From the NCBI GenBank assembly GCA_041665145.1, contig JBAYJK010000001.1, forward strand, positions 165,629 through 229,628: 64,000 nt of DNA, in the 5' to 3' direction. The first letter of the stretch is position 1. Every line of letters starts with the position of its first letter. The stretch comes from Patescibacteria group bacterium. GTDB lineage: Bacteria > Patescibacteriota > Microgenomatia > UBA1406. The notes beneath the pieces are model-generated. The model saw only the letters and a list, made by a program, of their open reading frames with translations. It had not been told where the DNA came from and made no database searches. Made by a program: the position numbers and the translations under genes. Shown piece by piece: positions 5,605-38,632 of this stretch.

Positions 5605-6641
5605 GTTATGAAATGGTTAAGATGCGTACGGGGCATCCGATCCAGATGAGTGATATCAGTACAGATGATCCCTTTTTGGTACTTATAGAATGCGGCAACT
5701 CCGATCATGGCAGCATTGTCGGCAGTGAGGTTCTTGGAAGTCGGAAAGTAAACAGGTGTGCTTCCAAATCCCAATTGACGAACATATTTTCTGAGAAATT
5801 TATTATCCGAAACACCACCACCGAAAACAATCTGTTTCGGTTGAAACTGCTGCACTGCTTTTTTAAGCTTTAAAACAAGAGATGTGACAATTGCCGATTG
5901 TGCGGCCTGCGCAAGATGAGCAAGTTCTTGTGGTAGTTCTTTTTCGGGAATAGACTCGTATAATCGTACAAAAGCAGTTTTCAGACCGGAATAAGAAAAA
6001 TCAAGTGATGTATGGTTTAGCATTGGGATAGGGAGTTTGTACCGTTCAGACAATGTACTATCACGCGCCAGTTTTTCAATCACTGCGCCACCGGGATATC
6101 CCAAGCCCATTGTCCGAGCGATTTTGTCGAATGCTTCTCCGGCAGCGTCATCCAGCTTTTGCCCGAGGATTTCATAGTGCACATGATCCTTCATGAGAAT
6201 AAGGTCGGTGTGCCCACCGGAAATGATGAATGCAAGAAGCGGGAACTTAAAGTCACGGATGGGCAAACCGTTTCTATTTTGAGCAAAAGATGAGTAAATG
6301 TGTCCTTCTATATGATCGACGGGAATAAGAGGTTTGTTATTAGTTGTTGCAAGCTCTTTCGCCTTGTTCAGACCTACTTCTAGCGCGGGGGCGAGGCCGG
6401 GTCCGAAAGTAACCGCAAACGCATCGATGTCTCTTTCAGCAATATGGACTCTTTGCAACGCTATTTTTACTGCAGGGTTTATTTTTGTTAAATGCTCGCG
6501 CTTTGCTACCGTGGGATAGACCCCACCGAATTCCGCATGGTATTTAACCTGCGAAAAGATAACGTTTGTAAGAATTTTACGCCCTTCGGTTATAGCGACG
6601 GAAGTGTCGTCACAACTCGTATCGATTGCCAAGATTTTCAT
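5601..6641 (-). CDS. tsaD: tRNA N6-adenosine threonylcarbamoyltransferase TsaD
   Basis: Has ILAIDTSCDDTSVAI, HIEGHIYS and GGVSDN motifs of the Kae1/TsaD family. Its start overlaps the stop of the upstream tsaC-tsaE gene. Confidence 0.9.
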   Translation of the reverse strand: MKILAIDTSCDDTSVAITEGRKILTNVIFSQVKYHAEFGGVYPTVAKREHLTKINPAVKIALQRVHIAERDIDAFAVTFGPGLAPALEVGLNKAKELATTNNKPLIPVDHIEGHIYSSFAQNRNGLPIRDFKFPLLAFIISGGHTDLILMKDHVHYEILGQKLDDAAGEAFDKIARTMGLGYPGGAVIEKLARDSTLSERYKLPIPMLNHTSLDFSYSGLKTAFVRLYESIPEKELPQELAHLAQAAQSAIVTSLVLKLKKAVQQFQPKQIVFGGGVSDNKFLRKYVRQLGFGSTPVYFPTSKNLTADNAAMIGVAAFYKYQKGIICTDITHLDRMPRTHLNHFIT

Positions 6642-7711
6642 AGTTCATATATTGAAAAACTTCTGCTGTTTTCGTCAAGAATTTCTATCTGACAATACAA
6701 AGCGATTGCCTTTTTACCTTTTAAAAGATTTTGTACAGAACCGATTTTTTCACCCCATTCGAAAACAAGTACATTACGAGGTTGCAGTAGTTTATTGATT
6801 TCAAGATTCTCCAGATCATCCTGATTCTCCGCACGATATAAATCAAAATGGTGGAACTTTGTGATAACTGAATGATTAGTAGTGTATTCATAGTAAAGCA
6901 CAAAAGTTGGCGAGACAACGTGTTCGGTATCTAGGTATTCGCCGATTCCTTGGGAGAAAACCGTCTTTCCGGCTCCTAAATTTCCCTGAAGTATTAAAAT
7001 AACCGGCATTTCGTGCGCCGCTTTCAAATACTTTGTAAGTAATGCAACAGCAAGTTGTTTAGTCTGACCGGCGGATACTGTTACCTTTCTCTCTATAAGT
7101 TTTAACTTCATGTCACCTTTTCTCAAAGTCGGCAAGGTGGATTCACTGAGATTCACGATGGTTGAAGGCAGGTTGTGCGGAAGCGTACCGTAATCAACGA
7201 TGAGATCAAGCAAGTTCTTTTTTGTATCCGAAAGAGTGTTAAGAAGCGCCTCAATCGAATAGTGTGGACCGCGGGCATGTATGTTAGCCGATGTTGCTGT
7301 GTATGGAAACGGCACAGTTTTTGAAAGCTGATGGAGAAACTCATAGTCCGGTATGCGTATCCCGAGAGTTTTGTCTTCTGCTTCCAATTGCGCGGATACG
7401 GTGTGGAGCGACGGTAATACTATAGTATATGCACCGGGAAGTATCATGTTCAGGGTCTGTTCCTGTTGTTTCGTCAGTGCAATATATTTTTTTGCATGAA
7501 CCAAGTCTTTCACCGCGATGGAAATTGCCTGACCGCGTGGTCGGTCCTTGAATGCCAGTAGCTTATTCACTGCCTTTTCCGAGTCCGCTCGTGCAGCAAG
7601 GCCGTACACTGTATCAGAAGGGAAAACGACCAGTCCATCGGTTAAAAGCGTTTTTTTAACTTCCTGTAATACTGAATTCCGATTGTTTGCGGTAAGCTGT
7701 ATGCGTCTCAT
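6638..7711 (-). CDS. tsaC/tsaE: Fusion of L-threonylcarbamoyladenylate synthase (TsaC/YrdC domain) and the t6A ATPase TsaE
   Basis: The N-terminal half has YrdC motifs (PSDTVYGLAA, KDRP, TSAN, PSTIV). The C-terminal half has TsaE motifs (GNLGAGKT, SPTF, HFDLYR, EWG). The start is set at ATG 7711, 7 nt after TATAAT (7719-7724, minus strand). Confidence 0.8.
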   Translation of the reverse strand: MRRIQLTANNRNSVLQEVKKTLLTDGLVVFPSDTVYGLAARADSEKAVNKLLAFKDRPRGQAISIAVKDLVHAKKYIALTKQQEQTLNMILPGAYTIVLPSLHTVSAQLEAEDKTLGIRIPDYEFLHQLSKTVPFPYTATSANIHARGPHYSIEALLNTLSDTKKNLLDLIVDYGTLPHNLPSTIVNLSESTLPTLRKGDMKLKLIERKVTVSAGQTKQLAVALLTKYLKAAHEMPVILILQGNLGAGKTVFSQGIGEYLDTEHVVSPTFVLYYEYTTNHSVITKFHHFDLYRAENQDDLENLEINKLLQPRNVLVFEWGEKIGSVQNLLKGKKAIALYCQIEILDENSRSFSIYEL

Positions 7712-10769: not shown

Positions 10770-11629
10770 AAAAGTCAGGAATAGTTCTCTTACTAGGCAG
10801 ACCAAACGTGGGGAAGTCAACGCTTCTGAACACGCTCATTGGTCAGAAAGTTAGTATTACATCCCCAAAGTCTCAAACAACTCGCGCACCTCTTAAAGCG
10901 TTATTTGAGGATGAGCGGGGACAGCTTTTGTTTGTGGATACTCCCGGAGTTTTTTTGAAAGCGCAAGACAAGCTCTCAAAAACAATTAATCGACGAACCC
11001 TGTCTGCCGTAGAAGAAGATTTTGACGTGGCTGTGTACATGGTCGACCAAACGCGTGCGCGCAATTTTGAAGAGGGAAGAGTTGCCGGGATAGTCCGCGG
11101 TATTTCAAAACCCAAGATACTGGTCATTAATAAAATTGATGCAGAAGGACCCAACCACTATGCTGAGTACAGATATTTAGAAGATGAAATCCCGGAAGTG
11201 TACAAAATTTCCGCATTAAAACAGAAACATCTCAAGCCTCTTTTGGATGGAATCTTTGAAAAAGTGAACAGACCCTATCCCATCGTGCCACCTGAAGATG
11301 TCGGCCATCCAGGCTTAACTCTTCACAGCACACAGTTTGTTGAAGAAATAATACGTGAAAAAATTTATCTGTTTACCCGTGAAGAAGTTCCGTATAAAAC
11401 AGGTGTTCATGTGGAAGAAATAACAGAACGAAAAAGCGGACTACTCTATATAAAAGCACAGATATTGGTTACTGACAAACGGTACCGCAAGATGCTTATC
11501 GGAAGAGAAGGCCGGATGGTAACGGAAATCGGCCGTGCTGCACGTAAAGAACTGGAGCTTGCCCGTGGAAAGAAAGTATTCCTGGATCTGCGGATTGAAA
11601 CCGATTATCACTTGCTCGATAATGTTTAG
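10766..11629 (+). CDS. era: GTPase Era
   Basis: G1 is [10 protein letters not shown]3 is DTPG and G4 is NKID. The C-terminus is a KH domain. ATGA start/stop overlap with rpmH. Confidence 0.9.
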
Positions 11630-12438
11630 TTTTTCAAAGTAAAGAAAGACCTGTCTCCAATTTGAATTGGTATGGTCGTTTTGTAGCCTGAATATACTGC
11701 TGCAGCATGACTACTCTCTTGGTTCGAAGTAAACAGGGGTCTTAATACGTCGGTAGGAATTGATGCCACCTCTTTCATGGTATGTGCGTAGGCAAATAAT
11801 GACGCAGTTGTCGGAGCTCCTACGCAAGCACCAACACATGCCGAAAGATGCAACAACACGGCCAAATATTTTTCTGAAAGTTCAAATTTATCTGCCTCTG
11901 CGCTGAACGCTTGTAGAAGTCGTAGAGACTGAAAACTGTGTGCTGCAGTAAATTCGCGAGGAGACGCTTTTACCATAGGTGCTAAATACGGAGCTTCCAG
12001 ATTGTTTATGTATAAGACGTATCCCAATTGTATAAGGAAATCTGGACGTATTGTTTCAGGGATACCATCAAACCAGTTTTTGATTGCTTCAATTGTTTTT
12101 TTCCCTTCCCATATGCCGTTCGGCATAGTTCTCCGAAGCGGTGCGCAACAATCAGCCATTCTTTGAATTGTTAGCGCTTCGGCTGCTGAAAAGAATTCTG
12201 TTGCTGAAATTACTGCCTGCGCTGCGATACTTTGTTCGAGTGTTGGGGGGTTGTTCAACTGATCAACAACAAATCTTTGAGCTTCTTGTAAGTTTAGGTC
12301 AACCCCAAAACCCATAGGCAGAGCCAGTCCTTCAATTTTAATTACGCTACCTCGGGGAACAGTGAACTGGTTAAGTAATGCAGAAGTTTTTTTATAGTCT
12401 GTTCCCGGTTTAAGACTATAGAGATGCTCTAAAGACAT
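11626..12438 (-). CDS. Hypothetical protein (270 aa, no recognised family)
   Basis: The long ORF has a leaderless-type start, with TATAAT 5 nt upstream of the ATG on the minus strand. It contains the segment SACVGACVGAP. Confidence 0.5.
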   Translation of the reverse strand: MSLEHLYSLKPGTDYKKTSALLNQFTVPRGSVIKIEGLALPMGFGVDLNLQEAQRFVVDQLNNPPTLEQSIAAQAVISATEFFSAAEALTIQRMADCCAPLRRTMPNGIWEGKKTIEAIKNWFDGIPETIRPDFLIQLGYVLYINNLEAPYLAPMVKASPREFTAAHSFQSLRLLQAFSAEADKFELSEKYLAVLLHLSACVGACVGAPTTASLFAYAHTMKEVASIPTDVLRPLFTSNQESSHAAAVYSGYKTTIPIQIGDRSFFTLKN

Positions 12439-12508: not shown

Positions 12509-13246
12509 ATGGAACTTAAAGGCAAAAAATTTTGGGATACCATTGCTCCGACATTCGTTAACGAATCAACCTTCAGCAGAAAATATGTGTTTGTACCCCA
12601 GTTAATAAAGATTCTTGGTAATGTTAAAAATAAGAAGATTTTCGAAATCGGTTGCGGACCGGGAAAAAATTTGATGATTTTTGCCCAAAAAGGGGCAATT
12701 TGTGCCGGGATAGATTATTCTGAGGACATGATCTCAGTCGCACGTCAGGAAGCCGAAAGAAAAAATGTGTACATAGACTATTCCGTTGTCGACGCACTAA
12801 ATCTCAAAAGTGTTACCGGCACATTTGATTTTGTGCTGATTGCTAACTTCCTGATATTTTTGAAGGGTAAAACAAATGTAGAGCGTGTTTTAAAGCATGC
12901 TGCACGATTATTAAGTCCTACCGGGAAGCTTGTTATCGGAGAACCGCATCCGGCCTTCGATTACTACATGAGAACCCACCTAAACGAGAATAAATTTGAT
13001 TATTTTACGAGCGGAATGTCGTATCAATTCTCCATGGATTTACCTTCAGGCAAATATTCATCGCACGCGTACCGCATAACGCTCGAAGATTATGCGCGCG
13101 TACTTCGCGCATCGGGGTTTGGAATACGTAATATTTATGAGCCGAAACCTGTTGCAAAGGCGTTCACGGAGCAGCCGGAAACGGCAAAGCAAAAATCACA
13201 TTTCCCGCCGTATATTTTTTTTGAATGCACGAAAGCTCAGTTTTGA
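12509..13246 (+). CDS. Class I SAM-dependent methyltransferase
   Basis: Has motif I EIGCGPGKN and a post-I acidic residue (GIDYS). The start is set at ATG 12509, 8 nt after TGgTATTAT. Confidence 0.75.
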   Translation: MELKGKKFWDTIAPTFVNESTFSRKYVFVPQLIKILGNVKNKKIFEIGCGPGKNLMIFAQKGAICAGIDYSEDMISVARQEAERKNVYIDYSVVDALNLKSVTGTFDFVLIANFLIFLKGKTNVERVLKHAARLLSPTGKLVIGEPHPAFDYYMRTHLNENKFDYFTSGMSYQFSMDLPSGKYSSHAYRITLEDYARVLRASGFGIRNIYEPKPVAKAFTEQPETAKQKSHFPPYIFFECTKAQF

Positions 13247-14652
13247 GCACCTATATTTCTGAGTCTATCAGAAACTCTTTCCTTGCCGATTATTTCCATT
13301 CCCTCGAATAACGGGGCAGTGACTTTCTGATTCGAAAGCGCAAAGCGGAGATCCATATAGAGTTTTACCGGTTTTACATTATGCTTGTTTGCGACATCTT
13401 CCGCAGTTTTGTAGATTTTGGTATGTGCCCATTGGTCCAATGAGTACAATGAATCTAATAAGTCCAATTTGACTAGCTTTAAAGTTTCCAGGGGAAATTC
13501 AATTTTGTCCGGTTGCTCAAATATAAACCGGACCAGTGGCCAATAATCAGAAAGCTTTTTCATTCGTGTTTGTACAAGTGGAATAGTTTTCTCTACAATC
13601 GCAGGGTCCAATTTTTTATCTTTGTACCTCTCCATATACTCCAACACTTTAGACTTTAAACTTTTTACTTTATACTTCCGTATGTACTCCCCGTTCATCC
13701 ATTCAAGCTTGGTTAAATCAAACTTGGGATTAATAGGGTCAAGATCCTTAAAGTCGAAAAGCCTAACAAACTCTTCAAAATCAAAAATCTCTTTTTGCTC
13801 CGGGTGGCTCCAACCGAGAAGTGCAATAAAGTTTAAGACTGCTTCCGGTAAATAACCCTGCTCCTGATACCAAGAAACACTAGCGTGACCGTTTCGCTTG
13901 GCCATTTTCGAACCATCCATGTTTGTGATCAGGGGAGTATGGGTCACGACAGGCATGTCCCAACCGAAATAATCGTAGAGCAGTTTATGTTTCGGATAAC
14001 TCGGTAGCCATTCCGGTCCACGAAGGATGTGTGTTGTTTCCATCAGGTGATCGTCAACAACAACTGCGAGATGATAAGTAGGGAACCCGTCAGTTTTAAG
14101 AATTACCTGATCATCAGTAAGTGATGAGTCGAAAGATACGTCGCCGCGAATGAGGTCATGCACGATGATTGTGGTATTTTCGGGAATCTTCATTCTGATA
14201 ACATATGGTTCTCCTTTTGCAATTCTTTCTTTTGATTCGGCGAGTGGAATATTTCGGCACTTTTTGTCATAAATAGAGGGCTTTTTTTCGAGCTGATTTT
14301 TTTTACGGACTTCATCTAGTCTCTCCGCGGTACAGAAACAATAATATGCATGATTCTTCTCTACAAGTTCAAGTGCATATTTCTTGTACAATTCTAGTCT
14401 CTCGGATTGTTTATATGGACCGTACTTTCCCGGATTCCGGGGACTTTCATCCTCGGTTAATTTGAACCAGTCAATCGATTCATAGATCTTGTTTTCCGCA
14501 CCTTCGACAAATCGTTTCTGGTCGGTGTCCTCTATGCGTATAAAAAACGTTCCATTATTTTTTGTTGCAAATGCCCGATCAAGCATCGCTTGATATACCG
14601 TTCCGATATGGGGAAAGCCTGTCGGAGAAGGGGCAATTCTTGTACGTACCAT
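13237..14652 (-). CDS. gltX: Glutamyl-tRNA synthetase
   Basis: Has RIAPSPTGFPHIGT (HIGH region) and SKMAKRNG (KMSKS). The start is set at ATG 14652, 6 nt after TATAAT (14659-14664, minus strand). The longer ORF to 14733 runs through repeat DNA. Confidence 0.9.
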   Translation of the reverse strand: MVRTRIAPSPTGFPHIGTVYQAMLDRAFATKNNGTFFIRIEDTDQKRFVEGAENKIYESIDWFKLTEDESPRNPGKYGPYKQSERLELYKKYALELVEKNHAYYCFCTAERLDEVRKKNQLEKKPSIYDKKCRNIPLAESKERIAKGEPYVIRMKIPENTTIIVHDLIRGDVSFDSSLTDDQVILKTDGFPTYHLAVVVDDHLMETTHILRGPEWLPSYPKHKLLYDYFGWDMPVVTHTPLITNMDGSKMAKRNGHASVSWYQEQGYLPEAVLNFIALLGWSHPEQKEIFDFEEFVRLFDFKDLDPINPKFDLTKLEWMNGEYIRKYKVKSLKSKVLEYMERYKDKKLDPAIVEKTIPLVQTRMKKLSDYWPLVRFIFEQPDKIEFPLETLKLVKLDLLDSLYSLDQWAHTKIYKTAEDVANKHNVKPVKLYMDLRFALSNQKVTAPLFEGMEIIGKERVSDRLRNIGAQN

Positions 14653-26989: not shown

Positions 26990-27607
26990 ATGAAAATCGA
27001 ACATGCATATGTGCCTGTACCAGCAGGACTACAGCCTTGGCAGATTGAGCCGGGGTTACTTTCAGTGTTTAACAATCAAGCCGCTATTCCGGTCAGCAAC
27101 AATCTGTCTATCGCCAGGCCGTTAGTGCAACATACAGATAATATTCTGGCACTTCTTAATGGTGAGGCTGCCCTTGTCCCCGTGCAAGGGGCGGAGATTG
27201 CGCAGACCATTGCAGCCGGTCTGAACCTTATCGCGTACGATCATGCGGCAGGTGCGGTTGTCGGGTACCAATCGATTGGTCTCTGGAATCAACTAGGCCT
27301 GCTTGAATTACGGTCGGCAAAGGTTTTGCCGAACTACCGGGGTAACGGGCTCAACACCGTTATGAAACAGCTTGCAATATCAATTGGTATGCAACAGTTT
27401 CCGGGACGGAAATTTTTGGGATTTACCGAAGCAGAGAGCAAGAGTCGGGGAATATTATCCAAACTTGGGTTCCAAGAGATGACAATGCAACAAGTTGCTG
27501 CGAAATGGCAGGAGTTGTCGTCAATTTGTCCCGACCAATGCTTTATTAAAACAGGCCATCCGTGTGGCTGTAAAGTTTATATACTTGATCCATATGAAAC
27601 CAAATAA
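26990..27607 (+). CDS. GNAT-like acetyltransferase (weak assignment)
   Basis: The C-terminal half has a VLPNYRGNGLNTVMKQL segment resembling the GNAT acetyl-CoA (R/Q-x-x-G-x-G/A) motif. Confidence 0.4.
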   Translation: MKIEHAYVPVPAGLQPWQIEPGLLSVFNNQAAIPVSNNLSIARPLVQHTDNILALLNGEAALVPVQGAEIAQTIAAGLNLIAYDHAAGAVVGYQSIGLWNQLGLLELRSAKVLPNYRGNGLNTVMKQLAISIGMQQFPGRKFLGFTEAESKSRGILSKLGFQEMTMQQVAAKWQELSSICPDQCFIKTGHPCGCKVYILDPYETK

Positions 27608-27608
27608 T

Positions 27609-28679
27609 ATGTCAAAAACAATAACCGAGGTTTTTATGGATTTAGTGCACATACCATCACCGAGCGGCAACGAAAAAAAAGTAGCTGAATATGTGACTCA
27701 ATTTCTGAAACCGCTTGGTTGGAACACATTCATTGACGATAAAGGGAATGTTATCGCACGTACTTCGCACCGTACCGTAAAACCGGTGGTATTTGTTGCT
27801 CACATGGATACGGTTCAAAAACCGGGTGAGATTGTGCGTCCGCAATTTGATGGCATACATTTTACCAGCGATGGTACTACGATTTTGGGAGCAGATGATA
27901 AAGCGAGTGTTGCTGTACTTCTTGCCTTGGCAAGAAGTTTTTATGAAAGCAAAACTGAACCTCCTGTCGTGCTCATATTTACCACCCGAGAAGAGGCGGG
28001 AACGATGAGTTCGTCTGCTCTTTCTTTTGAGGAGATAAATCCACTATTTATCTGTAATGTTGATGGATCAAATGCTTTGGGGACAATTGACTATCGATCA
28101 TATGGTCAAACAATATTCGAGTTGTCGATCCACGGCAAAGCAGCGCATGCCGCTATTGAGCCAGAGAAAGGAGTACACGCTATTTCGATTCTCGCTCGGA
28201 TAGTAAGTGGTTTGCGTATGGGCAAGTCAAAGTCACGAACCCTAAATATTGGCAGTATTTCTGGGGGCGGGGCAACTAACATTGTTCCTGCTACTGCATC
28301 TGTACGTGGCGAGGTGCGGAGTTATAGACAAGCTATGATCAAATCAACACTTGATAAGATCCTGCAGGATGCAACCCGCATAGCGAAAAAATATGGTGCT
28401 ACTGCTCGACTAAAGATAGTAGAGAACACTCCACCATTTATTGGGGCTAAGTCATCTTTTGCGGTAAGTCGTGTTGTAAATGCACTGAAGAAATCCGGCG
28501 TTGCTCCGATAGTACAGAGTGCGACCTATACAAGCGATTCAGGGTATTTGTCTGCTTCGGGGTATCCGACTGTAACGCTTTGTAAGGGTGGATTAAATCC
28601 CCATAGCACGAGCGAATCGATTACTCTGGTGGAGATGGAGATGCTTCTTGAAATTGTGCAAAAGATAATTATTGATTGA
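27609..28679 (+). CDS. M20-family metallopeptidase/amidohydrolase (PepT/ArgE-like)
   Basis: Has IPSPSGNEKKVAEY, VAHMDTV, GADDKASVA, TTREEAG and a dimerisation-domain pattern. The start is moved to ATG 27609 because the track ORF from 27495 overlaps the upstream gene. Confidence 0.8.
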   Translation: MSKTITEVFMDLVHIPSPSGNEKKVAEYVTQFLKPLGWNTFIDDKGNVIARTSHRTVKPVVFVAHMDTVQKPGEIVRPQFDGIHFTSDGTTILGADDKASVAVLLALARSFYESKTEPPVVLIFTTREEAGTMSSSALSFEEINPLFICNVDGSNALGTIDYRSYGQTIFELSIHGKAAHAAIEPEKGVHAISILARIVSGLRMGKSKSRTLNIGSISGGGATNIVPATASVRGEVRSYRQAMIKSTLDKILQDATRIAKKYGATARLKIVENTPPFIGAKSSFAVSRVVNALKKSGVAPIVQSATYTSDSGYLSASGYPTVTLCKGGLNPHSTSESITLVEMEMLLEIVQKIIID

Positions 28680-28704
28680 CAAGTTTAGTACGTACTAGTA
28701 TACT
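28676..28704 (+). promoter_or_regulatory. Sigma70-type promoter TTGACA-17-TATACT driving a leaderless TrpR-family gene
   Basis: TTGACA at 28676-28681, a 17-nt spacer and TATACT at 28699-28704. The ATG at 28713 is 8 nt downstream. Confidence 0.7.
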
Positions 28705-28710
28705 AGTACG
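28691..28710. promoter_or_regulatory. TrpR-type operator: perfect 20-bp palindrome CGTACTAGTATACTAGTACG
   Basis: The core GTACTAGTATACTAGTAC differs from the idealised E. coli trp operator GTACTAGTTAACTAGTAC only at the two central positions. It covers the -10 box and the predicted transcription start. Confidence 0.8.
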
Positions 28711-28712
28711 GT

Positions 28713-28973
28713 ATGAAAAACAAAGCAGAAATCGAACAGCTGGTACATGTATTACTTAATCTTAGCAACAAGGAAAGAATGGTGGATTTTCTAGAGGGTA
28801 TTTTGACACCTTCAGAACTTGAGGAAGTTGCTCATAGGCTGCAGATAGTAAAAATGTTGAAACTAGGTGTACCGCAAAAAAATATAGCTAAGGAATTGGG
28901 TGTCGGTATTGCAACCGTTACCCGGGGATCTCGTGAGTTGAAGCAAAACAGATTTTCGTATCTTTGGCAATAA
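28713..28973 (+). CDS. TrpR-family (Trp repressor / YerC-YecD-like) DNA-binding protein, 86 aa
   Basis: Has the HTH region NIAKELGVGIATVTRGSRELK (compare E. coli TrpR ELGAGIATITRGSNSLK). The preceding helix motif is LTPSELEEVAHRLQIV. Confidence 0.85.
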   Translation: MKNKAEIEQLVHVLLNLSNKERMVDFLEGILTPSELEEVAHRLQIVKMLKLGVPQKNIAKELGVGIATVTRGSRELKQNRFSYLWQ

Positions 28974-28977
28974 AGCT

Positions 28978-29024
28978 GGCTCGTGTGTGTTTTCTGAGAA
29001 GAGAACGTGCACGAGCCATTTTTT
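28978..29024 (+). terminator. Intrinsic terminator after the TrpR-family gene
   Basis: GGCTCGTG (28978-28985) pairs with CACGAGCC (29010-29017), and T6 follows at 29019-29024. Confidence 0.65.
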
Positions 29025-29117
29025 GTGGCAATTATTATTAGTTACAAATAACTGTTATGTCAGCTGAAAATGCTTTTCCAGTGATCGGAGACGTGGGACT
29101 CGTCTCATCCAGGTTTA

Positions 29118-29783
29118 TTGAGTTACAAAATGGGTTTCCCTGGCGTCATAAAAACACATATAGTCGGGGACGGTATTGAAGGGTTTGACCGCGTGCACGA
29201 AATGACCGAACTTACCTCAAATGCTTTTGGAGTTATGATGGACGAACCGGATGTTGCTCGGCATCTGCTTGGGCACCTTGTGGTAGATGTGGCAGTTGAA
29301 AACAGATCGATAGGGTTTGCAAGCGCCAAGTATTTCAGAACTCAAGCAGGAAACGTCTTATATATTTCCGGAATGGCAATCCATAAAGATTTTCAAGGCC
29401 AGAGAATTGGACCATTGTTGGTTTCTGAAATGTACGACTATTACCAACAGGCAGGAAAAGATGTTGCATATATAGCAGGAAGAACATCAAATCCAAGAGT
29501 AGCCCGATCACGAAGGGTATATTGCGAGGGTAATGGTACATATCCGATTGACCGTGCACCCGACGATAAAGTGGTTGTTGTGGCACAGCATATCCGACAG
29601 GCATTGGGTATGGTGGGAGCTTTTGATCCGTCAACTTTGGTATGTAAAGATGTATATCGCCAACCCTTATACATTGAGCGCCCGAGTAGCGGCGACCAAA
29701 AAATCGATACATTCTTTTTAAGAAATGTAGGAACACGTGATGCGGTTTTTATAATCGGAATTCCTGATTTTAGCAGTTCATAG
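29118..29783 (+). CDS. GNAT-family acetyltransferase-like protein
   Basis: Has ISGMAIHKDFQGQRIGPLLVSEMYDYY (Q-x-x-G-x-G/A-like CoA motif). The start is uncertain: TTG at 29118 or ATG at 29130. Confidence 0.5.
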   Translation: MSYKMGFPGVIKTHIVGDGIEGFDRVHEMTELTSNAFGVMMDEPDVARHLLGHLVVDVAVENRSIGFASAKYFRTQAGNVLYISGMAIHKDFQGQRIGPLLVSEMYDYYQQAGKDVAYIAGRTSNPRVARSRRVYCEGNGTYPIDRAPDDKVVVVAQHIRQALGMVGAFDPSTLVCKDVYRQPLYIERPSSGDQKIDTFFLRNVGTRDAVFIIGIPDFSSS

Positions 29784-29792
29784 AAACCGACC

Positions 29793-30710
29793 ATGTTACC
29801 AGAATTAATTATAGACACAGATGCGGGTCACGACGATATTTTGGCCATTATACTGTTGGTTAAATCAAAACTTTTTAGTATTAAGGCTATTACTACGGTG
29901 GCGGGAAATTCCTCAATTAGAAATGTAACGCGGAATGTATTTTATGTGCTTAACTTATTGCATGAGTCAAATATTCCCATATATTCGGGTTTCCCGTCAC
30001 CTCTTAAACGAAGACTTATTAAAGCAGTTATACACGGCAAAAACGGACTCTCCGGTGCGGACACATCAAAAACAAAATATCACCTGACTAAAGATGCTCC
30101 GGAACAATTAATCAAGATTGTCAAAAATTCACCCCGAAAAGTAACAATCTTGACACTCGGTCCATTATCAAATATTGCGCGGGTGTTGCAAAAAGACCAC
30201 TCAATTGCGACTTCAATAGACAAGATAGTTATGATGGGTGGGTCGTTAAACGGTTATGGTAATAAAAGCAGAGTTGCTGAATTTAATATGTTTGTAGACC
30301 CGGAAGCCGCAGATATTGTATTTAAATCACCCATTCAAAAAATATTACTTCCACTAGATGCTTGTAACGAATGCGCATTTTCTTTAAAAAGCTTTACGCA
30401 ATTACCTACATCCGTTTTGAATACAGCTATTACACAGATGATGAGAGAATATATCTCGAAGATAAAAATTCGGACAGGTATAGAAGGAACTCTGGTTTAT
30501 GATGCGCTTGCGGCTTATTACCTTATCAGTCCAACAGTCTTTACAACTCGCCTTATGGATATCGTGATTGAGAAAAGAGGAAAATATACATCCGGGATGA
30601 CAGTAGCTGAGCGGCGGTTTAGTGTTGTAAAAAAGAATAATGTGAGCGTTATAGAAAAAGTAGAGTACGAAAAGTTTAAGAGTTACTTTTTTGCTTTGTT
30701 AAAAAGTTAA
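29793..30710 (+). CDS. Inosine-uridine-preferring nucleoside hydrolase family (IUNH), copy 1
   Basis: Has the N-terminal Asp cluster LIIDTDAGHDDILAI (DxDxxxDD) and the family-typical length of 305 aa. Confidence 0.85.
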   Translation: MLPELIIDTDAGHDDILAIILLVKSKLFSIKAITTVAGNSSIRNVTRNVFYVLNLLHESNIPIYSGFPSPLKRRLIKAVIHGKNGLSGADTSKTKYHLTKDAPEQLIKIVKNSPRKVTILTLGPLSNIARVLQKDHSIATSIDKIVMMGGSLNGYGNKSRVAEFNMFVDPEAADIVFKSPIQKILLPLDACNECAFSLKSFTQLPTSVLNTAITQMMREYISKIKIRTGIEGTLVYDALAAYYLISPTVFTTRLMDIVIEKRGKYTSGMTVAERRFSVVKKNNVSVIEKVEYEKFKSYFFALLKS

Positions 30711-31014
30711 AGTAACCTCCGCACCCGCGATAAAGCCAATGGGCAACGCGGGTGACGGTTGCAGTTGATGTTTTTAATTTTTTAGCAATTTCCTTATATG
30801 AACTGCCGGTAAAAATAAGGCGGGCCATCTCGAGACGGTTGGCAAACTCTTCTATTTCAGCAGGGGTTAGCATGTCCCGCATAAGCGCTGCCGCTGCAGC
30901 CGTATCTTTCAATGAAGCAAATGCTCGTGTTAAATTTTCCTCCTTAATGTTACGGGGAGAAAAGTGCTCTGACTGTTTAAATTTACTAACAACACCTGTC
31001 CGCGCTTTTACCAT
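30676..31014 (-). CDS. TrpR-family / YerC-YecD-like regulator, copy 2 (112 aa)
   Basis: Has LTPAEIEEFANRLEMARL and the HTH EIAKKLKTSTATVTRVAHWL. The leaderless-type start has TGaTATAGT 6 nt upstream on the minus strand. Its 3' end overlaps the IUNH copy 1 gene by 35 nt (convergent). Confidence 0.8.
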   Translation of the reverse strand: MVKARTGVVSKFKQSEHFSPRNIKEENLTRAFASLKDTAAAAALMRDMLTPAEIEEFANRLEMARLIFTGSSYKEIAKKLKTSTATVTRVAHWLYRGCGGYFNFLTKQKSNS

Positions 31015-31033
31015 ATTTCTACTATATCACAGT

Positions 31034-31061
31034 CACTCCATTTAATTGTTTAAATGGAGTG
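31034..31061. promoter_or_regulatory. Candidate operator: perfect 12-bp inverted repeat CACTCCATTTAA-N4-TTAAATGGAGTG
   Basis: It sits between the divergent promoters of the TrpR-family copy 2 gene and the PRT-HAD operon, and abuts the plus-strand -35 box. Confidence 0.65.
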
Positions 31062-31062
31062 C

Positions 31063-31091
31063 TTGACATCAATGTATTAATGTGATAATAT
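31063..31091 (+). promoter_or_regulatory. Promoter TTGACA-17-TAATAT with TG extension
   Basis: TTGACA at 31063-31068, a 17-nt spacer, TG at 31083-31084 and TAATAT at 31086-31091. Confidence 0.7.
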
Positions 31092-31100
31092 GTTGAAGTC

Positions 31101-31169
31101 ATGAATATTTTACGCAAAAATATAGTTAGTCAAGAAATGCATCATAGCCCCACTCATTCGGGGCAATAA
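31101..31169 (+). CDS. Candidate 22-codon leader peptide MNILRKNIVSQEMHHSPTHSGQ
   Basis: The ATG is 9 nt after the -10 box. The His codons at 31140-31145 immediately precede hairpin arm 1. The stop at 31167-31169 lies just past arm 2. Confidence 0.35.
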   Translation: MNILRKNIVSQEMHHSPTHSGQ

Positions 31170-31198
31170 ATTTACCGCAACAAAATAGAAATTTATCA

Positions 31199-31220
31199 CC
31201 CCGCCAATGGCGGGGTTTTT
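31199..31220 (+). terminator. Leader terminator/attenuator hairpin CCCCGCC-aat-GGCGGGG + T5
   Basis: A 7-bp GC stem is followed by TTTTT, 36 nt upstream of ATG 31257. An alternative pairing of CGGGG (31159-31163) with CCCCG (31199-31203) is possible. Confidence 0.6.
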
Positions 31221-31256
31221 AGTGGGTTAAAACATTAATAATTAAAACAAAAAAAC

Positions 31257-32840
31257 ATGAAACCAGAAATACCAAAGTACATATTGACTGATGATAGCCG
31301 GGCACTTTTCTCTAAGTTAAACGGAGGAGAAGACATTATTGAAGATAGAGTATTTAACCAGGCTGCATCAAAATATTTTGCGATCATTAATCAGCAAATC
31401 GAGCAGGCATTTGATGGGCCACTGAAGATAGTTGGGGAAACGGAAAGAAGAATTGAAAGCCGACTGCAAAGCAGGGTTCGCTCCATTCTGAAATCGGATC
31501 AGAATGTAGTCTGTATTTGTCTGGACCGGTTTCTCTTCGCTGATTTTGATAAAGACCAGACCTTTGCTGACAGGTTTTTTAGATTTAGTACGTGTCGGAC
31601 TATTGACGGACGAAAAGAACCTCGACAAGGAAATCCTTCGTTTGCAGACCAAATTCAGAACTTGCTGAGAAGCATTCCCGATATTAGAAATAGGAAGGTG
31701 GTTGTCGTCGATGACGGTCTGTTTTCTGGCGGTACTATTAATGATTTCCTGATGTTACTCAAAAGTAACGGGATTGAAATAAATCTGGAAAAAATAATCG
31801 GATACATGGGTCCCCGATCGGTCATGAAAGCTTCAGACAGAAAAACTGAAATCCTGCAGCCCATAGACAATTTATTTGAATGGGTGGATGTGCGTGATTT
31901 TAGCCCGCTTGGAGGTAAAAAACTAAATGCCAGTGCCAATAATATGGTAACCACATCAATCCCATATTTATACCCATGGAGTGAGGGAAGTGCGGCAACA
32001 CTCGATATGTCTCCCGCATTTTTTGATACCAGTATCGCGATTATGAAAGGATTCAGACAATTAGTAGTAACGTACGAACTTTTGCGAAATACCAAATTAA
32101 GGTTCAGAGATTTGATTAAGGCCGGTTACCCTTTACCAACCGATAAAGAAAAGACTGTTCCCATCTCAATTAATGACACTGTTACCGATTATTTGGATCG
32201 TTGTATTGGTTTGGTGGAACAAGAGAAAAATAGAAAAGTGGTTATTTGCGACATGGATGGAACGTTTTACCAGCTTGATGGTAAAGGAGGTGGTTATCAA
32301 AATTCTAAGCTAGAGTTAGCAGTACAAACCAATGCCTTATTATTTATACAACGTAGAGAGAAATGCACACCCGATCAAGCACAGTTAATATTTTCTAGAG
32401 CCCAACAAGATCCAGTGGGGGCAAGTTTGTTCTTAGCGGAGAAATATGGAATTTCCCGTACAGATTATTTTAATGAAGTCTGGAATATCGATCCTGCTGG
32501 AATAGTTGTTAATTACGAAGTTGCAACTGGGTCGTTGTGCCAGTTTAAAGGAAAGTACCCGGGGGTGAAACTAGTTTTATTAACGTCAGCTCCCAGAGTT
32601 TGGGCTGAAAAAGTTTTAAAATTCTTGGGTATCAGGGAGCAATTTGAGCTTATATATACCGGAGAACAATTTGGGTCAAAAACAGAAGTTTTTGCACTGC
32701 TAGCTGGTCGTTATAAACCGGAAAACATGCTGTCTATTGGTGATCAGCAGGCAACTGATATTGAACCAGCTCAACAATTGGGAATGAGCACTCTCGTAAT
32801 TAATAGCCCCGACGAAGTTAGTAGAATATTACAATTATGA
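31257..32840 (+). CDS. Fusion protein: type I phosphoribosyltransferase-like N-domain + HAD-superfamily hydrolase C-domain
   Basis: Has the PRPP-binding motif KVVVVDDGLFSGGTI. HAD motif I is VVICDMDGTF, motif II is LLTSAP and motif III/IV is SIGDQQATD. Confidence 0.7.
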   Translation: MKPEIPKYILTDDSRALFSKLNGGEDIIEDRVFNQAASKYFAIINQQIEQAFDGPLKIVGETERRIESRLQSRVRSILKSDQNVVCICLDRFLFADFDKDQTFADRFFRFSTCRTIDGRKEPRQGNPSFADQIQNLLRSIPDIRNRKVVVVDDGLFSGGTINDFLMLLKSNGIEINLEKIIGYMGPRSVMKASDRKTEILQPIDNLFEWVDVRDFSPLGGKKLNASANNMVTTSIPYLYPWSEGSAATLDMSPAFFDTSIAIMKGFRQLVVTYELLRNTKLRFRDLIKAGYPLPTDKEKTVPISINDTVTDYLDRCIGLVEQEKNRKVVICDMDGTFYQLDGKGGGYQNSKLELAVQTNALLFIQRREKCTPDQAQLIFSRAQQDPVGASLFLAEKYGISRTDYFNEVWNIDPAGIVVNYEVATGSLCQFKGKYPGVKLVLLTSAPRVWAEKVLKFLGIREQFELIYTGEQFGSKTEVFALLAGRYKPENMLSIGDQQATDIEPAQQLGMSTLVINSPDEVSRILQL

Positions 32841-33745
32841 ATCAAATAATCATTGATACAGATCCGGGAGTTGACGATGCCTTAGCGATCGCCCTAGCTT
32901 GTCTTTCAAAACTGAATGTGGTCGCTCTGACAACGGTTTATGGTAATGTCAATATTGCCGATTCAACTCGCAATGCACTGACGATATTGTCAGTCATTAA
33001 TAAAAAAGTTTCCGTATACCAAGGGGCGAGTAAACCTTTGATAAATAATGCGATCAAGGCGCAATCTCACGGAGAAAAAGGATTGGGTGGATTCGCAACC
33101 AAACTTAATTGGCAAAAAAGCCGGCGTAGTGCACGAAAATACTTGGAAGATACCTTTGGCTCAGCAGCGGATACGTCTATTACGCTTGTATGTATTGGTC
33201 CTGCAACTAACATTGCCAAATTATTTATTGCCAATCCTCAATCTGTAACAAAAATAAAAGACCTCGTGATTTTAGGTGGGGTATTTAACGAAAAAGGGAA
33301 TATGTCTCAATATTCCGAGTTTAATGCTATCAATGACCCTGAAGCATTAAAAATAGTTTTAAATGCCAATTGCAATAAGGTGCTGATACCTATAAACATT
33401 TGCAGGAAGGTTGTCTTTAAAAAAAGTGATTTTAATAAACTAATAAATAAGAAATTACAGCGATCTTTTGGCGCTATTGCCGATGCTTATATCAACTATT
33501 ATACCTCTGGAAGTAAATATGGTCAGTTTACCGGTGGAGTAATGTACGATTTGCTCACTGTTGTCTATCTTCTAGAGCCGAAGTTATTTAAAACTATAGA
33601 TGCAAATGTAAATGTCATCACAAGATTGGGCCCAATGTACGGTAGGACCATAATAAAGAAAATAGGAAAAGTGAATTGCCGCGTCGTCAGCGAAATTAAG
33701 CCAAGAAAAGTAAAGCAAGTATTTTTTAACGTTTTAAATAAATAA
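32837..33745 (+). CDS. Inosine-uridine-preferring nucleoside hydrolase family (IUNH), copy 2
   Basis: Has IIIDTDPGVDDALAI. Its start overlaps the stop of the upstream gene (ATGA). Confidence 0.85.
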   Translation: MNQIIIDTDPGVDDALAIALACLSKLNVVALTTVYGNVNIADSTRNALTILSVINKKVSVYQGASKPLINNAIKAQSHGEKGLGGFATKLNWQKSRRSARKYLEDTFGSAADTSITLVCIGPATNIAKLFIANPQSVTKIKDLVILGGVFNEKGNMSQYSEFNAINDPEALKIVLNANCNKVLIPINICRKVVFKKSDFNKLINKKLQRSFGAIADAYINYYTSGSKYGQFTGGVMYDLLTVVYLLEPKLFKTIDANVNVITRLGPMYGRTIIKKIGKVNCRVVSEIKPRKVKQVFFNVLNK

Positions 33746-33747
33746 AA

Positions 33748-34839
33748 ATGGAACTAACAAAAATTCTTTCTAAGCTAATCACAATTCCTTCTTTTGTCGA
33801 TGAGAAAAACAACGAGCAAAAACTTGCCGTTTTTATCGAAAGTTATTTGAAGGTTAATGCTCCTTGGCTTAACTTGTCGCGCCAGTATGTGGCTGAGGAC
33901 CGATGGAATATTATCGCCGGTGAAGCTAAAAACCCGGAACTGGTTTTTGTCTGTCACATGGATACGGTGCAACCTACAGGTGATACGCAAAAAATGCTCT
34001 CTCCGTCAGAAAAAGACGGGTATATCTATGGGCTTGGAGCAGCCGACATGAAAGGCGGAACTGCAGCATTGCTTGCGGCGATAAAAGCTGTTGGTCCGAC
34101 AAAAAATGTCGCATATGTGTTTGACTGCGACGAAGAATATTACTTCAAGGGAGCCAAACAGTTATTGAAAAAATGTAAGTGGAATCCCCAACTGGTTATT
34201 TGTCCCGAACCGACGGATATGGAAATCGTAAACGGTTGTCGTGGAATTATTGAGATAAAATTAGACGTAATCGGAAAAAGTGCGCATGCCGGACGGCCTG
34301 ATTTTGGAATCAATGCAATCGAAAAAGCTGTTGCTGTTATCTCGGAACTTAAGAGTAAGATAGGCGAGTTTGATGAGAAGAAACTCGGTAGAACAACAGT
34401 GAACTTAAGTAGATTGGATGGGGGGAAATTACAGAATGGACAGATAATTACCCAAGGGAATGCAGTCCCCGATGTTGCGCGCGTACTCTTGGACATACGA
34501 CCGGCAAGCAATAAATTGAATGGCGATAGAATAATAAGGATGCTTATGACTATTGCGAAAAGGAATAATGTGACGTTGTCAGGTCCGACTGTTACGATTG
34601 ATTATCCGGCATATTATTCAATTCCGAACGAATGTATTAATAGGCCATATCGAGCCAATTTAGGAAAAGGTGGTTTTTACGAAGCGGCTTTATTTTCCCG
34701 AGCCTGGCAATGTACGGCATTTACATTCGGTCCGGGTGACGCAAGTACTTCGCACAGCCCTGATGAGCGGGTAAAACTAGCTGACTTGACGAGTGTAAAG
34801 AAGGTATTCGAAAAGCTTCTATTGACATATCGTGTATAA
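33748..34839 (+). CDS. M20-family amidohydrolase (ArgE/DapE-like), copy 2
   Basis: Has CHMDTV, GAADMKGG, DCDEEY and SAHAGRP motifs. Confidence 0.8.
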   Translation: MELTKILSKLITIPSFVDEKNNEQKLAVFIESYLKVNAPWLNLSRQYVAEDRWNIIAGEAKNPELVFVCHMDTVQPTGDTQKMLSPSEKDGYIYGLGAADMKGGTAALLAAIKAVGPTKNVAYVFDCDEEYYFKGAKQLLKKCKWNPQLVICPEPTDMEIVNGCRGIIEIKLDVIGKSAHAGRPDFGINAIEKAVAVISELKSKIGEFDEKKLGRTTVNLSRLDGGKLQNGQIITQGNAVPDVARVLLDIRPASNKLNGDRIIRMLMTIAKRNNVTLSGPTVTIDYPAYYSIPNECINRPYRANLGKGGFYEAALFSRAWQCTAFTFGPGDASTSHSPDERVKLADLTSVKKVFEKLLLTYRV

Positions 34840-36294: not shown

Positions 36295-36818
36295 CAAAGA
36301 AAAGAAAGATTCAAATAGCAGTTGTTGGTTCAATGTTCGACTTGCCGCAAAACCGGTCTACTATCGCGCTTGCAAGAGATATTGGAAGAGAATTAGCCAC
36401 TAATAAAGCAGTTTTGTTATATAGCTTCGAAGGGGATAGTCAATCACTTTCTTATATAGCAGCTAGAGAAGCTGAAAAATGTGGTGGAGAAATTATCGCA
36501 TTTCTTTGGGGTAATACGAAAGTGACGGGCTCTGTAGTAGGAAAAGCAGTTCGAACCGGGCAACTCCGAGGAGGAGGCAGAGAATTCCCACTAATTTTAA
36601 GTGCTAACGCTGTTATAAGTATTGGTGGTGGATCAGGGACTCTTATGGAGATAGCTATGTCTTATCAAGCGGGAATTCCTGTCATTGCTCTCGAAAATAC
36701 TGGTGGATGGAGTGAACGCCTGATGAATACGTTTATGGATGAAAGAAAAAGAAATAAAGTGCTTTCAGCAAAAGATGCTCGAAGTGCAGTGCTTCTGGCG
36801 ATAAAGGAAAGTATTTAG
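36291..36818 (+). CDS. TIGR00725 / LOG (SLOG)-family Rossmann protein
   Basis: Has IAVVGS at the N-terminus and the ISIGGGSGTLMEIAMSYQAGIPVIAL motif (GGGxGTxxE). ATGA overlap with the upstream gene. Confidence 0.7.
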   Translation: MTKKRKIQIAVVGSMFDLPQNRSTIALARDIGRELATNKAVLLYSFEGDSQSLSYIAAREAEKCGGEIIAFLWGNTKVTGSVVGKAVRTGQLRGGGREFPLILSANAVISIGGGSGTLMEIAMSYQAGIPVIALENTGGWSERLMNTFMDERKRNKVLSAKDARSAVLLAIKESI

Positions 36819-38632
36819 CCTTTCATGATTTTCTCGAATTCGTCCTGATCAAGCGTTTCTTTCTCGAGAAGCTCTTTGGCGACGGCATCAAGCTGAGGTT
36901 TGTGTTCTTTCAGTGTGGCTACTGCTTTTTTGTAGCAGGCATTAATGAGCTTACTTATCTCTGCGTCAATTTTTGCCAATGTTTCTTGCGACAAACTTGA
37001 ACCTTCTCCGCGTGACCAGCTGGTCACATCAAAGTCGTCACCGAGATTAATCGGGCCAAGGCTACTCATTCCGTATTCAGTAACCATTTCGCGGGCAACA
37101 GCAGTTGCCTGATTGAAATCGTTTGCTGCACCGGTGGTAATTTCGTTAAAGATGAATTCTTCTGCTGCACGTCCGCCGAGCATCGCAGTAATTTGGTTTA
37201 CTAAGTGAGTTTTAGTTTCATGCACGATATCCTTCTGTGGAGGAATAAGTGTGTAACCCAATGACATACCGCGCGCAACGATCGAAATTCGGTGAACTGG
37301 GTCCATTCCCGGGAGCGATCTGGTGACTACTGCATGACCCGCTTCGTGATAAGCGGTAAGTTTTTTATCTTCATCGGTTTGCATTCGTTTCTTTTCGGGA
37401 CCAAGTTTAACCTTGGTGGCCGCTTCTTCAAGAATATTCATGGTGATTTTATCCTTACTCATGCGCGCGGTAAGAATGGCAGCCTCATTTAACATATTTT
37501 CCAGATCCGCACCGGAGTACCCGACTGTTCGACGCGCAAGCCGTTTCCAATCGACACCTTTTTCAAATGGTTTACCGGTTGAGTGTAATTTCAAAATAGC
37601 TTCACGCTCTTCAAGGTCAGGGTAATGTACTACGATACGTCGATCAAAACGTCCAGGTCGCATAAGAGCTGGGTCAAGCAAATCACCACGGTTTGTAGCT
37701 GCTATCACAACAACTTTTTCAGTTGGTTGAAAACCGTCCATTTCGACCAGGATCTGATTGAGTGTCTGCTCCCGTTCGTCGTGTCCACCCATGACTCCAC
37801 TGGAACGTGCTCGGCCGATTGCATCTATTTCATCAATAAAAATTATCGACGGGGCGTTGAGCTTTGCGGTCTTAAACAAGTCGCGAGCTCGTGCGGCTCC
37901 GATACCGACAAGCATTTCCATAAATTCTGAACCTGCGATTGAGAAGAACGCGACATTTGCTTCACCTGCAATTGCCTTTGCCAGCAGTGTTTTTCCGCAC
38001 CCGGCAGGGCCAACAAGCAGAACACCTTTCGGTGTGCGCGCGCCGATTTTTTTATACTTATCCGGGTTTTTCAGAAAATCGACAACCTCCTGCAATTCCT
38101 CTTTAGCTTCTTTGATGCCGGCAACATCCTTAAAGGTAATTCGCGAAGTGCCCTTATTGAATCGCTTTGCCCGGGATTGACCGAATGAAAATATCGAGTC
38201 TTGTGTTCCCCGTGCTTGTCGGAATAAGAATACGAAAAAACCGATCATCAGAAGTGTAGGTACGATATTGATCAGTATATTGGCGATAGTTCCAAATTGT
38301 GAGCTGTTATTGTTTTTGATGGTAACAGATAAAGGATTAATTCCTGAATCTTTGAGCATCTCAAAGACCGTGGCATTGGGCTCTTTTGTTGTTTTCGCAA
38401 ACGTTCCATTTTTATATTGAATGAGCAATTTATCTTCAACGACTTCGATTTCTTTCACTTTGGATTTTTTAACGTCGGTTAAGACGCTTGAAATTGATTT
38501 CTCAGGTATGGTTTTGTCGATGTAATCTTTGCCGCTTAGTGCAATCGACAAGATAAAAAACCCGATTATGAGTACAAAAAACACGAACTGAAGATTGAAT
38601 TGAAGCTTGAATTGCTGTTTCTTTTGTGCCAT
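36815..38632 (-). CDS. ftsH: ATP-dependent zinc metalloprotease FtsH
   Basis: Has Walker A GPAGCGKT, the SRH region and the zinc site HEAGHAV, plus two N-terminal TM helices. Confidence 0.95.

Follow-up and report, generated by a model that had tools for sequence, protein, structure and literature searches.

How does an operator of the Escherichia coli trp type come to lie in front of a small regulator gene whose neighbors code for nucleoside hydrolases and peptidases rather than for tryptophan biosynthesis? This question is raised by a 64,000-bp stretch of the genome of a Patescibacteria group bacterium (Microgenomatia; UBA1406), here referred to as the window (positions 165,629 to 229,628 of contig JBAYJK010000001.1, which is 918,908 bp long). 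At positions 28676-28715 of the window, a 20-bp palindrome overlaps the promoter of a gene for an 86-amino acid (aa) protein of the TrpR family. From sequence comparisons and a structural model, we consider it probable that this element serves as the promoter-operator for a true TrpR ortholog of the Patescibacteria, or candidate phyla radiation (CPR), and that this ortholog represses its own gene. To our knowledge, transcription factors of the Patescibacteria/CPR and the sites to which they bind are almost entirely uncharacterized.

The promoter of a trpR-like gene contains a TrpR-type operator

The promoter consists of a −35 hexamer TTGACA (28676-28681, + strand) and a −10 hexamer TATACT (28699-28704, + strand) separated by a 17-bp spacer and, based on direct reading and a promoter scan, matches the consensus at 11 of 12 positions. 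The perfect 20-bp palindrome CGTACTAGTATACTAGTACG (28691-28710), which was found by direct reading, by a pattern scan, and with a weight matrix, is centered on the −10 hexamer. Its core GTACTAGTATACTAGTAC (28692-28709) contains two CTAG half-site cores (28695-28698 and 28703-28706) located 8 bp apart, i.e., the arrangement of the published TrpR operator consensus TGTAcTnGTnnACnAgTACA (PMC9413887). The core is identical to the idealized E. coli operator at 16 of 18 positions, and the 20-mer is identical to the natural operator of the E. coli trpEDCBA operon, CGAACTAGTTAACTAGTACG, at 17 of 20 positions. An ungapped comparison of the entire region 28676-28715 with E. coli Ptrp gave 26 identities over 40 positions; the Ptrp sequence used for this comparison agrees with the DNA preceding trpL in E. 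coli genomes at 100% identity. In both promoters, TTGACA is followed by a 17-bp spacer and by a −10 box that forms the center of the operator and, because these positions match, the window promoter has the classic trp promoter-operator architecture. The two operators differ in their central dinucleotides, which are AT in the window and TA in E. coli, giving TATACT rather than TTAACT as the −10 hexamer.

The trpR-like gene (28713-28973, + strand) starts with an ATG 8 nt past the −10 box and has no Shine-Dalgarno sequence; an in-frame TAG at 28704-28706 makes the ATG at 28713 the first possible start codon. In the promoter/terminator scan, an intrinsic terminator (28977-29024, + strand) with a 19-pair stem (28977-29018) followed by TTTTTT was identified directly after the stop codon, and trpR is therefore monocistronic here. 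A 12-bp palindrome, TAGTACGTACTA (28686-28697), overlaps the operator and has its center 9 bp before that of the main dyad. It may be an auxiliary half-site pair but is out of the 8-bp register of a third unit found in related loci (see below). A sequence-only reading of this DNA had reported the palindrome, the promoter, and the start codon at these same coordinates as well as the two-base difference from the idealized E. coli operator, all of which direct reading bore out. It had also proposed that the −10 box covered by this TrpR-type operator belongs to a TrpR-family gene subject to autoregulation, and the sequence comparisons support this proposal.

No perfect palindrome in the window is longer than CGTACTAGTATACTAGTACG. 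However, of 100 dinucleotide-shuffled versions of the window, 11 also contained one of 20 bp or more, and the length of the palindrome by itself is therefore weak evidence; it is the match in sequence that counts. When up to 3 mismatches were tolerated, GTACTAGTNNACTAGTAC occurred once in the window versus 0.06 times expected. A weight matrix of 22 columns built from orthologous sites scored the operator at 31 bits and the runner-up in the 64 kb at 10.4 bits. In a mismatch scan of 458 kb, comprising the window and 81 related loci, no further site was found when up to 3 mismatches were allowed. As a search for a regulon, the weight matrix and the mismatch scan thus gave no further operator in the window, and the mismatch scan gave none in the 81 related loci. 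We note that the tetranucleotide CTAG is ~6-fold depleted in the window, with 38 occurrences versus 237 expected from base composition.

The promoter-operator is conserved in orthologous loci

We compared the window with an ortholog that is 88% identical (locus L001) and 80 further metagenomic loci, i.e., 81 loci in total and 82 including the window. The best match to the 16-mer TACTAGTATACTAGTA near the gene start had 0, 1, 2, and 3 mismatches in 28, 28, 11, and 7 of the 82 loci, respectively, so that 56 loci have at most 1 mismatch and 74 have at most 3. The motif overlies a promoter of the form TTGACA-~17-TATA(C/A)T, the −10 box is always covered, and TTGACA is present in nearly all of the 57 distinct promoters that remained after removal of duplicates. 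In L001, GTACTAGTATACTAGTAC, the −35 box, and the spacer length are kept while the flanks have diverged, and the gene is also followed by a hairpin and a T-run. Many loci have a third, weaker TACTA unit exactly 8 bp upstream, and some have three full 8-bp units, which recalls the tandem binding of TrpR (PDB 1TRR). The window copy has no phased third unit and has the 12-bp palindrome at 28686-28697 in its place. Based on this conservation across orthologous loci, the operator is judged to be functional.

In 49 of the 57 distinct promoters, the start codon is at most 12 nt away from the −10 box, the most frequent distance being 7 nt. Within the window, a Shine-Dalgarno-like tetramer precedes only 6 of 45 long open reading frames (ORFs), and TATAAT-like boxes lie 6-9 nt before the ATG of many first genes (e.g., 6638-7711 [− strand], 8429, 11626-12438 [− strand], 13237-14652 [− strand], 14788, 36815-38632 [− strand], and 57161). 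The scarcity of Shine-Dalgarno tetramers together with the many TATAAT boxes close to an ATG argues that a leaderless start is the norm in this organism and not specific to trpR, and leaderless mRNAs appear to be its default. The leaderless transcript proposed in the sequence-only reading is hence upheld in that the mRNA would effectively be leaderless, but this appears to be a genome-wide habit rather than a special property of this gene.

The 86-aa protein resembles TrpR more than HisR

The 86-aa protein matches the Pfam family Trp_repressor (PF01371) with 80.2 bits (cutoff, 27 bits) and an E value of 1.2e-22. The best NCBIfam model is TrpR (TIGR01321) with 62.7 bits, 18 bits above the YerC/YecD model (TIGR02531; 44.3 bits). 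The protein aligns with residues 22-91 of E. coli TrpR with 40% identity over 70 residues, and in the match to PDB sequences, its recognition helix GIATVTRGSRELK is aligned with GIATITRGSNSLK of E. coli, the shared motif being GIAT(V/I)TRGS. An AlphaFold model of the monomer based on 35 homologs has a predicted local distance difference test (pLDDT) score of 94.2 and contains five helices, A-E (residues 4-16, 20-30, 33-50, 55-62, and 66-77). Using Foldseek, the best PDB matches of this model were structures of TrpR or TrpR-like proteins, among them 1ZT9 and two complexes with the operator (1TRO and 1TRR), with template modeling (TM) scores of 0.75-0.81. The model thus predicts the all-helical TrpR fold with a helix-turn-helix (HTH) formed by helices D and E. 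With its 86 residues compared to the 108 of E. coli TrpR, the protein has no N-terminal arm.

Residue roles are taken from established TrpR structures, and residues are numbered by E. coli TrpR. Eight of the nine residues of the tryptophan pocket are identical in the window protein (T44, P45, R54, I57, V58, T81, R84, and G85), and these eight are kept in 114-120 of 120 homologs. Taken together with the DNA-contact columns I79, A80, T83, and S86, the range is 104-120 of 120.

HisR (YerC/YecD) belongs to the same Pfam family and is likewise a short, all-helical HTH protein with 20-bp palindromic operators and frequent autoregulation; it keeps two of the nine tryptophan contacts, and its operator is cacTTTAnnnnnnTAAAgtg (PMC9413887). 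Neither a HisR-type operator (core TTTA-N6-TAAA) nor the loss of tryptophan contacts is seen in the window site and protein, and no his genes were present among the recurrent neighbor clusters of the orthologous loci. A paralog in the window (30676-31014) fits HisR better. Judged by sequence and model, the 86-aa protein is a true TrpR ortholog rather than a YerC/HisR protein. Speaking of one "TrpR/YerC" family, as the sequence-only reading did, agrees with the match to PF01371, but such lumping hides the distinction between this protein and the paralog, which is the YerC/HisR-like one.

Tryptophan genes follow trpR in CPR relatives

To place the gene in context, the genes flanking the 81 loci were clustered. 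NCBIfam names trpB, trpS, trpD, and trpG among the recurrent co-directional downstream genes. Matches to the TrpE family (anthranilate synthase component I) also recur downstream, all below the equivalog cutoffs, and a gene for an amino acid racemase is a further recurrent downstream gene. Where 900 bp or more of downstream sequence was available, 43 of 60 loci have at least one trp gene downstream, and 36 of 49 do so after de-duplication; in the remaining 13 of the 49 distinct relatives, trp genes are absent within 4 kb. The recurrent operons are trpR-trpB-(amino acid racemase)-trpS and trpR-trpE-trpG-trpD (e.g., L004, L006, L036, L043, L052, L071, L078, and L081). Because orthologs precede trp genes, the assignment to the TrpR family is settled and the operator is explained.

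Short ORFs that contain two or more Trp codons were observed in 20 of the 74 distinct regions downstream of trpR, and 18 of them are followed by T-runs. These conserved ORFs, for example MKNKINSKNWWTNFLW and M..NWWQINYPRSGWRF, are situated in the interval that separates trpR from trpB or trpE, 0-110 nt past the trpR stop codon, in loci that include L036, L052, L056, L070, L076, L079, L031, L007, and L078, and several are accompanied by GC-rich hairpins. With their T-runs, they look like trp leader-peptide attenuators. No short ORF of this kind was found in the window. These arrangements are reminiscent of trpRBA of Chlamydia trachomatis (PMC7755916, PMC6504234), a host-dependent bacterium with a reduced genome in which trpR is also the first gene, a TrpR-controlled promoter precedes trpB, and the trpR-trpB intergenic region provides a second regulatory layer. 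In Chlamydia, this layer is YtgR, whereas in the CPR relatives it looks like a leader-peptide terminator with Trp codons. The systems also differ in that trpS and the racemase gene are frequent in the CPR operons and in that trpR stands alone in the window genome. A literature search on TrpR or tryptophan synthase in Patescibacteria/CPR returned nothing relevant.

Nine of ten unlabeled genes downstream of trpR in the relatives had no match in Pfam. Such genes directly follow trpR in L023 (2520-4016), L066 (1798-3111), L080 (4472-5959), L069 (4716-5807), L035 (854-1939), and L042 (4722-5651), while the gene in L012 (3570-5705) has a C-terminal HAD domain only. By position, these genes are candidate uncharacterized families genomically tied to the tryptophan repressor.

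The same palindrome also occurs outside trpR loci

A scan of a single genome from each species for GTACTAGTNNACTAGTAC without mismatches gave at least 120 loci (L082-L201); the present genome is not among the matches listed. Among these 120 matches, 62 are adjoined by genes for GntR-family proteins (~130 aa, YtrA-like) in high-GC Acidobacteriota, Eremiobacterota/Vulcanimicrobiota, Acidimicrobiia, and others. The GTACTAGT-N2-ACTAGTAC sites in the promoters of these GntR genes mostly have AC/GT centers and are, therefore, tandem GTACTAGT units (e.g., L082 7019-7036, L090 4385-4402, and L091 4161-4178). Ten of the 120 matches listed adjoin TrpR-family genes in CPR bacteria and Halomonas, and six are in Vibrio, have the canonical TTAA center, and lie beside a gene for a PHP-domain protein. 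Two unrelated HTH families thus seem, on the basis of these sequences, to share one operator sequence and, with GntR-family genes next to 62 of the 120 matches listed, the palindrome by itself does not identify a TrpR gene. The window and L001-L081 contain no GntR-like gene, and we rejected a GntR-type protein as the one that binds the site in CPR bacteria, as no such gene is nearby.

In Halomonas/Vreelandella, the protein encoded by L121 (7501-7809) shares 51% identity over 68 residues with the window protein and matches Pfam Trp_repressor, and L153 and L178 match the family profile. GTACTAGT-N2-ACTAGTAC is located 0-26 nt upstream of each of these genes, and the L121 site GTACTAGTACACTAGTAC abuts the ATG. 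These proteins differ from the window protein in being proteobacterial and in having 94-96 aa. The three loci support that the short TrpR clade with an operator just before the start codon is not confined to the CPR.

Exact palindromes without an adjacent trpR also occur in CPR genomes. In L138 (3225-3242; Woesebacteria), the palindrome lies 7 nt before a gene for a GNAT acetyltransferase; in L200 (2023-2040; Nomurabacteria), it lies 17 nt before a DUF218 gene and inside a 34-bp extended palindrome; and in L093 (3131-3148; Saccharimonadales), it precedes a gene for a membrane protein. It is possible that these three sites are remote members of the regulon or sites for other regulators.

A model for autorepression and its alternatives

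Taken together, the data suggest the following model, in which we infer dimerization, ligand identity, binding, repression, and the start of transcription. RNA polymerase would bind TTGACA-17-TATACT and start transcription at or within ~3 nt of the ATG at 28713, yielding a leaderless mRNA. The 86-aa product would fold as TrpR helices A-E and presumably dimerize; a dimer is implied by the palindromic operator. The ligand would be l-tryptophan, or an indole amino acid very close to it, in a pocket that matches the E. coli residues. The liganded dimer would bind the 20-bp palindrome via the two CTAG-centered half-sites located 8 bp apart and, with the dyad lying within the −10 hexamer, occlude the promoter and repress its own transcription; negative control of its own gene and CTAG units phased by 8 bp are features that it would share with E. 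coli TrpR. In the CPR relatives, the same promoter-operator would also drive trpB, trpEGD, and/or trpS downstream, and a leader attenuator with Trp codons would frequently add a second layer; in the present genome, trpR would end in its terminator and stand as an isolated autoregulated unit. Compared with E. coli, the operator here thus lies in front of trpR only, the trp operon is not attached, and the mRNA is predicted to be leaderless.

Several observations weigh against this model. The NCBIfam score lies 4.5 bits below the TrpR equivalog cutoff of 67.25 while the YerC/YecD cutoff of 42.2 is passed, which accounts for the name "YerC/YecD family TrpR-related protein" that NCBI gives to an identical protein. 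Helix F, which is part of the dimer core of E. coli TrpR, is missing in the window protein, which stops 8-9 residues past helix E in the model, and the same is the case across the clade of ~85-aa proteins. S88, which contacts the amino group of tryptophan, is replaced by Glu in 119 of 120 homologs (Glu75 in the window protein). R69, which directly contacts a G, is replaced by Lys in the window protein and is His, Arg, or Gln in other homologs. Among His, Gln, and Lys, we observed no clear covariation of the residue at this position with the base 5′ of TACTAG, while Arg is enriched among G-flanked sites, an enrichment that is confounded by phylogeny. Neither a trp gene of the kind that recurs in the relatives nor a second operator lies within the 64-kb window, leaving the repressor without a visible target. 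Finally, in view of the GntR-adjacent matches, the sequence of the site alone cannot prove which protein binds it.

The last point leads to the alternative that the palindrome is the site of an unrelated regulator, e.g., of the GntR/YtrA type as in Acidobacteriota and Eremiobacterota, or a mere promoter or restriction-type palindrome (ACTAGT). We regard this as very improbable. GntR-family genes of ~130 aa do adjoin more than half of the GTACTAGTNNACTAGTAC matches listed, and a perfect 20-bp palindrome arises in 11% of shuffles of the 64 kb. But a GntR-like gene is absent from the window and the 81 orthologous loci, the motif and a trpR-like gene occur together at a fixed position in at least 74 of 82 loci, the ACTAG and AGTAC flanks are missing from other strong promoters of the window, and the site equals, at 17 of 20 positions, the operator of the closest characterized homolog. 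Somewhat less improbable, though still unlikely, is that the protein binds the palindrome in response to a ligand other than tryptophan (histidine as for HisR/YerC, indole, or a nucleoside-related metabolite) and functions with the neighboring nucleoside hydrolase, M20, and GNAT genes. The NCBI annotation, the passed YerC/YecD cutoff, and the position among nucleoside-salvage genes agree with this possibility, as does the S88-to-Glu replacement, given that engineered variants of TrpR at position 88 shift ligand specificity (PDB titles 6EJZ, 6ENI, and others). It is opposed by the eight pocket residues, which are kept, unlike in HisR; by the CTAG-type operator, which is not TTTA-N6-TAAA; by the orthologs that precede trp genes and Trp-codon leader peptides; and by the neighbors, which lack the operator and are not conserved beside trpR.

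Two further readings concern what an autorepressing TrpR does in this genome. One possibility, to which we give some but clearly less than even weight, is that the locus is an evolutionary remnant in which former downstream trp genes were lost or moved, leaving a repressor that controls itself alone. A monocistronic gene with a strong terminator, as in the closest relative L001, 64 kb without a trp gene or a second operator, neighbors that do not recur beside trpR, and the 13 of 49 distinct relatives without trp genes within 4 kb are all in line with a remnant. On the other hand, the perfect palindrome, the promoter with 11 of 12 consensus positions, and the intact ORF with all key residues argue for ongoing selection; moreover, ~855 kb of the contig lie outside the window, and the essential trpS, a member of trpR operons in relatives, must lie somewhere. 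We only tentatively entertain, at a similar level, the broader proposal that the ~85-aa CPR proteins, with Glu88 and without helix F, are a natural minimal TrpR of five helices acting on an E. coli-type operator with an unchanged promoter layout, that the module of TrpR, CTAG operator, and −10 box is either extremely ancient or passed on horizontally as one unit, and that the stand-alone copy senses tryptophan for targets other than biosynthesis (trpS, uptake, or host-dependent functions) in a bacterium possibly lacking the pathway.

Returning to autorepression by a TrpR ortholog, the copy in the window is an isolated, putatively autoregulated trpR detached from trp genes, and any further targets would lie outside the 64 kb. 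The sequence-only reading had considered the conservation of the operator in such a distant lineage unexpected. This view does not hold, as the gene is a genuine TrpR ortholog of a CPR-wide clade with trp genes downstream in 36 of 49 distinct loci; since this clade appears to control trp genes in the CPR, the anomaly dissolves, and the non-trp neighborhood is peculiar to the present genome. The same reading fared better in stating that the recognition helix is kept and that nucleoside hydrolase and M20 genes are neighbors, with which the alignment and the Pfam matches agree. The membership in PF01371, which it had named as a check, and the palindrome in orthologous loci, whose absence it had named as a refutation, also came out in its favor. 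The result is mostly explanatory, i.e., an orthodox though orphaned trpR and a new CPR case of a known system.

The case offers a regulator, its operator, its promoter, and a likely ligand that can all be read from the sequence and tested with standard E. coli tools; with an operator so near that of E. coli, cross-complementation in a trpR mutant is feasible. The comparisons suggest that TrpR repression is present in CPR lineages, and the Trp-codon leaders with T-runs suggest attenuation as a second layer. They also correct a systematic annotation error, as the Prokaryotic Genome Annotation Pipeline (PGAP) calls such proteins YerC/YecD. With its five helices and 86 aa, the protein would represent a naturally minimal form of a classic model protein of structural biology.

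The neighborhood of trpR and a second TrpR-family gene

The neighbors of trpR code for M20 peptidases, GNAT acetyltransferases, two nucleoside hydrolases, and a phosphoribosyltransferase-HAD (PRT-HAD) fusion. The region 26990-34839 contains duplicated modules with two M20 peptidase genes (27495-28679 and 33748-34839), two GNAT-like genes, and two genes for inosine-uridine nucleoside hydrolases that are 31% identical (29793-30710 and 32837-33745), as well as the gene for the PRT-HAD fusion (31257-32840), and looks like a nucleoside/peptide salvage island. In the other loci, these neighbors do not recur beside trpR, and neither the mismatch scan nor the weight matrix found an operator in front of the neighboring genes. 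Based on this lack of recurrence and of operators, we rejected a functional link between trpR and the M20, GNAT, nucleoside hydrolase, and PRT-HAD genes.

The second TrpR-family gene (30676-31014, − strand) codes for a protein of 112 aa that scores higher with the YerC/YecD (HisR-like) model than with the TrpR model. An inverted repeat of 12 + 12 bp, CACTCCATTTAA-TTGT-TTAAATGGAGTG (31034-31061), is located upstream of this gene, and its core TTTA-N6-TAAA fits the published HisR motif (PMC9413887). With this repeat, the window encodes a TrpR-type as well as a HisR-type regulator, and both have a cognate-looking operator.

Next to the repeat, the region 31063-31256 (+ strand) starts with a promoter-like TTGACA (31063-31068) followed by a leader of ~165 nt before the PRT-HAD gene. 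Searches against Rfam gave only chance-level matches and no known RNA family at the trpR locus or in the leader region 31000-31300. The leader contains an ORF of 22 codons (31101-31169; MNILRKNIVSQEMHHSPTHSGQ), three of which are His codons. It also contains a CCCC/GGGG hairpin and, as a strong terminator, CACCCCGCCAATGGCGGGGTTTTT, and may act as a small attenuator of the His type or as an unknown riboswitch.

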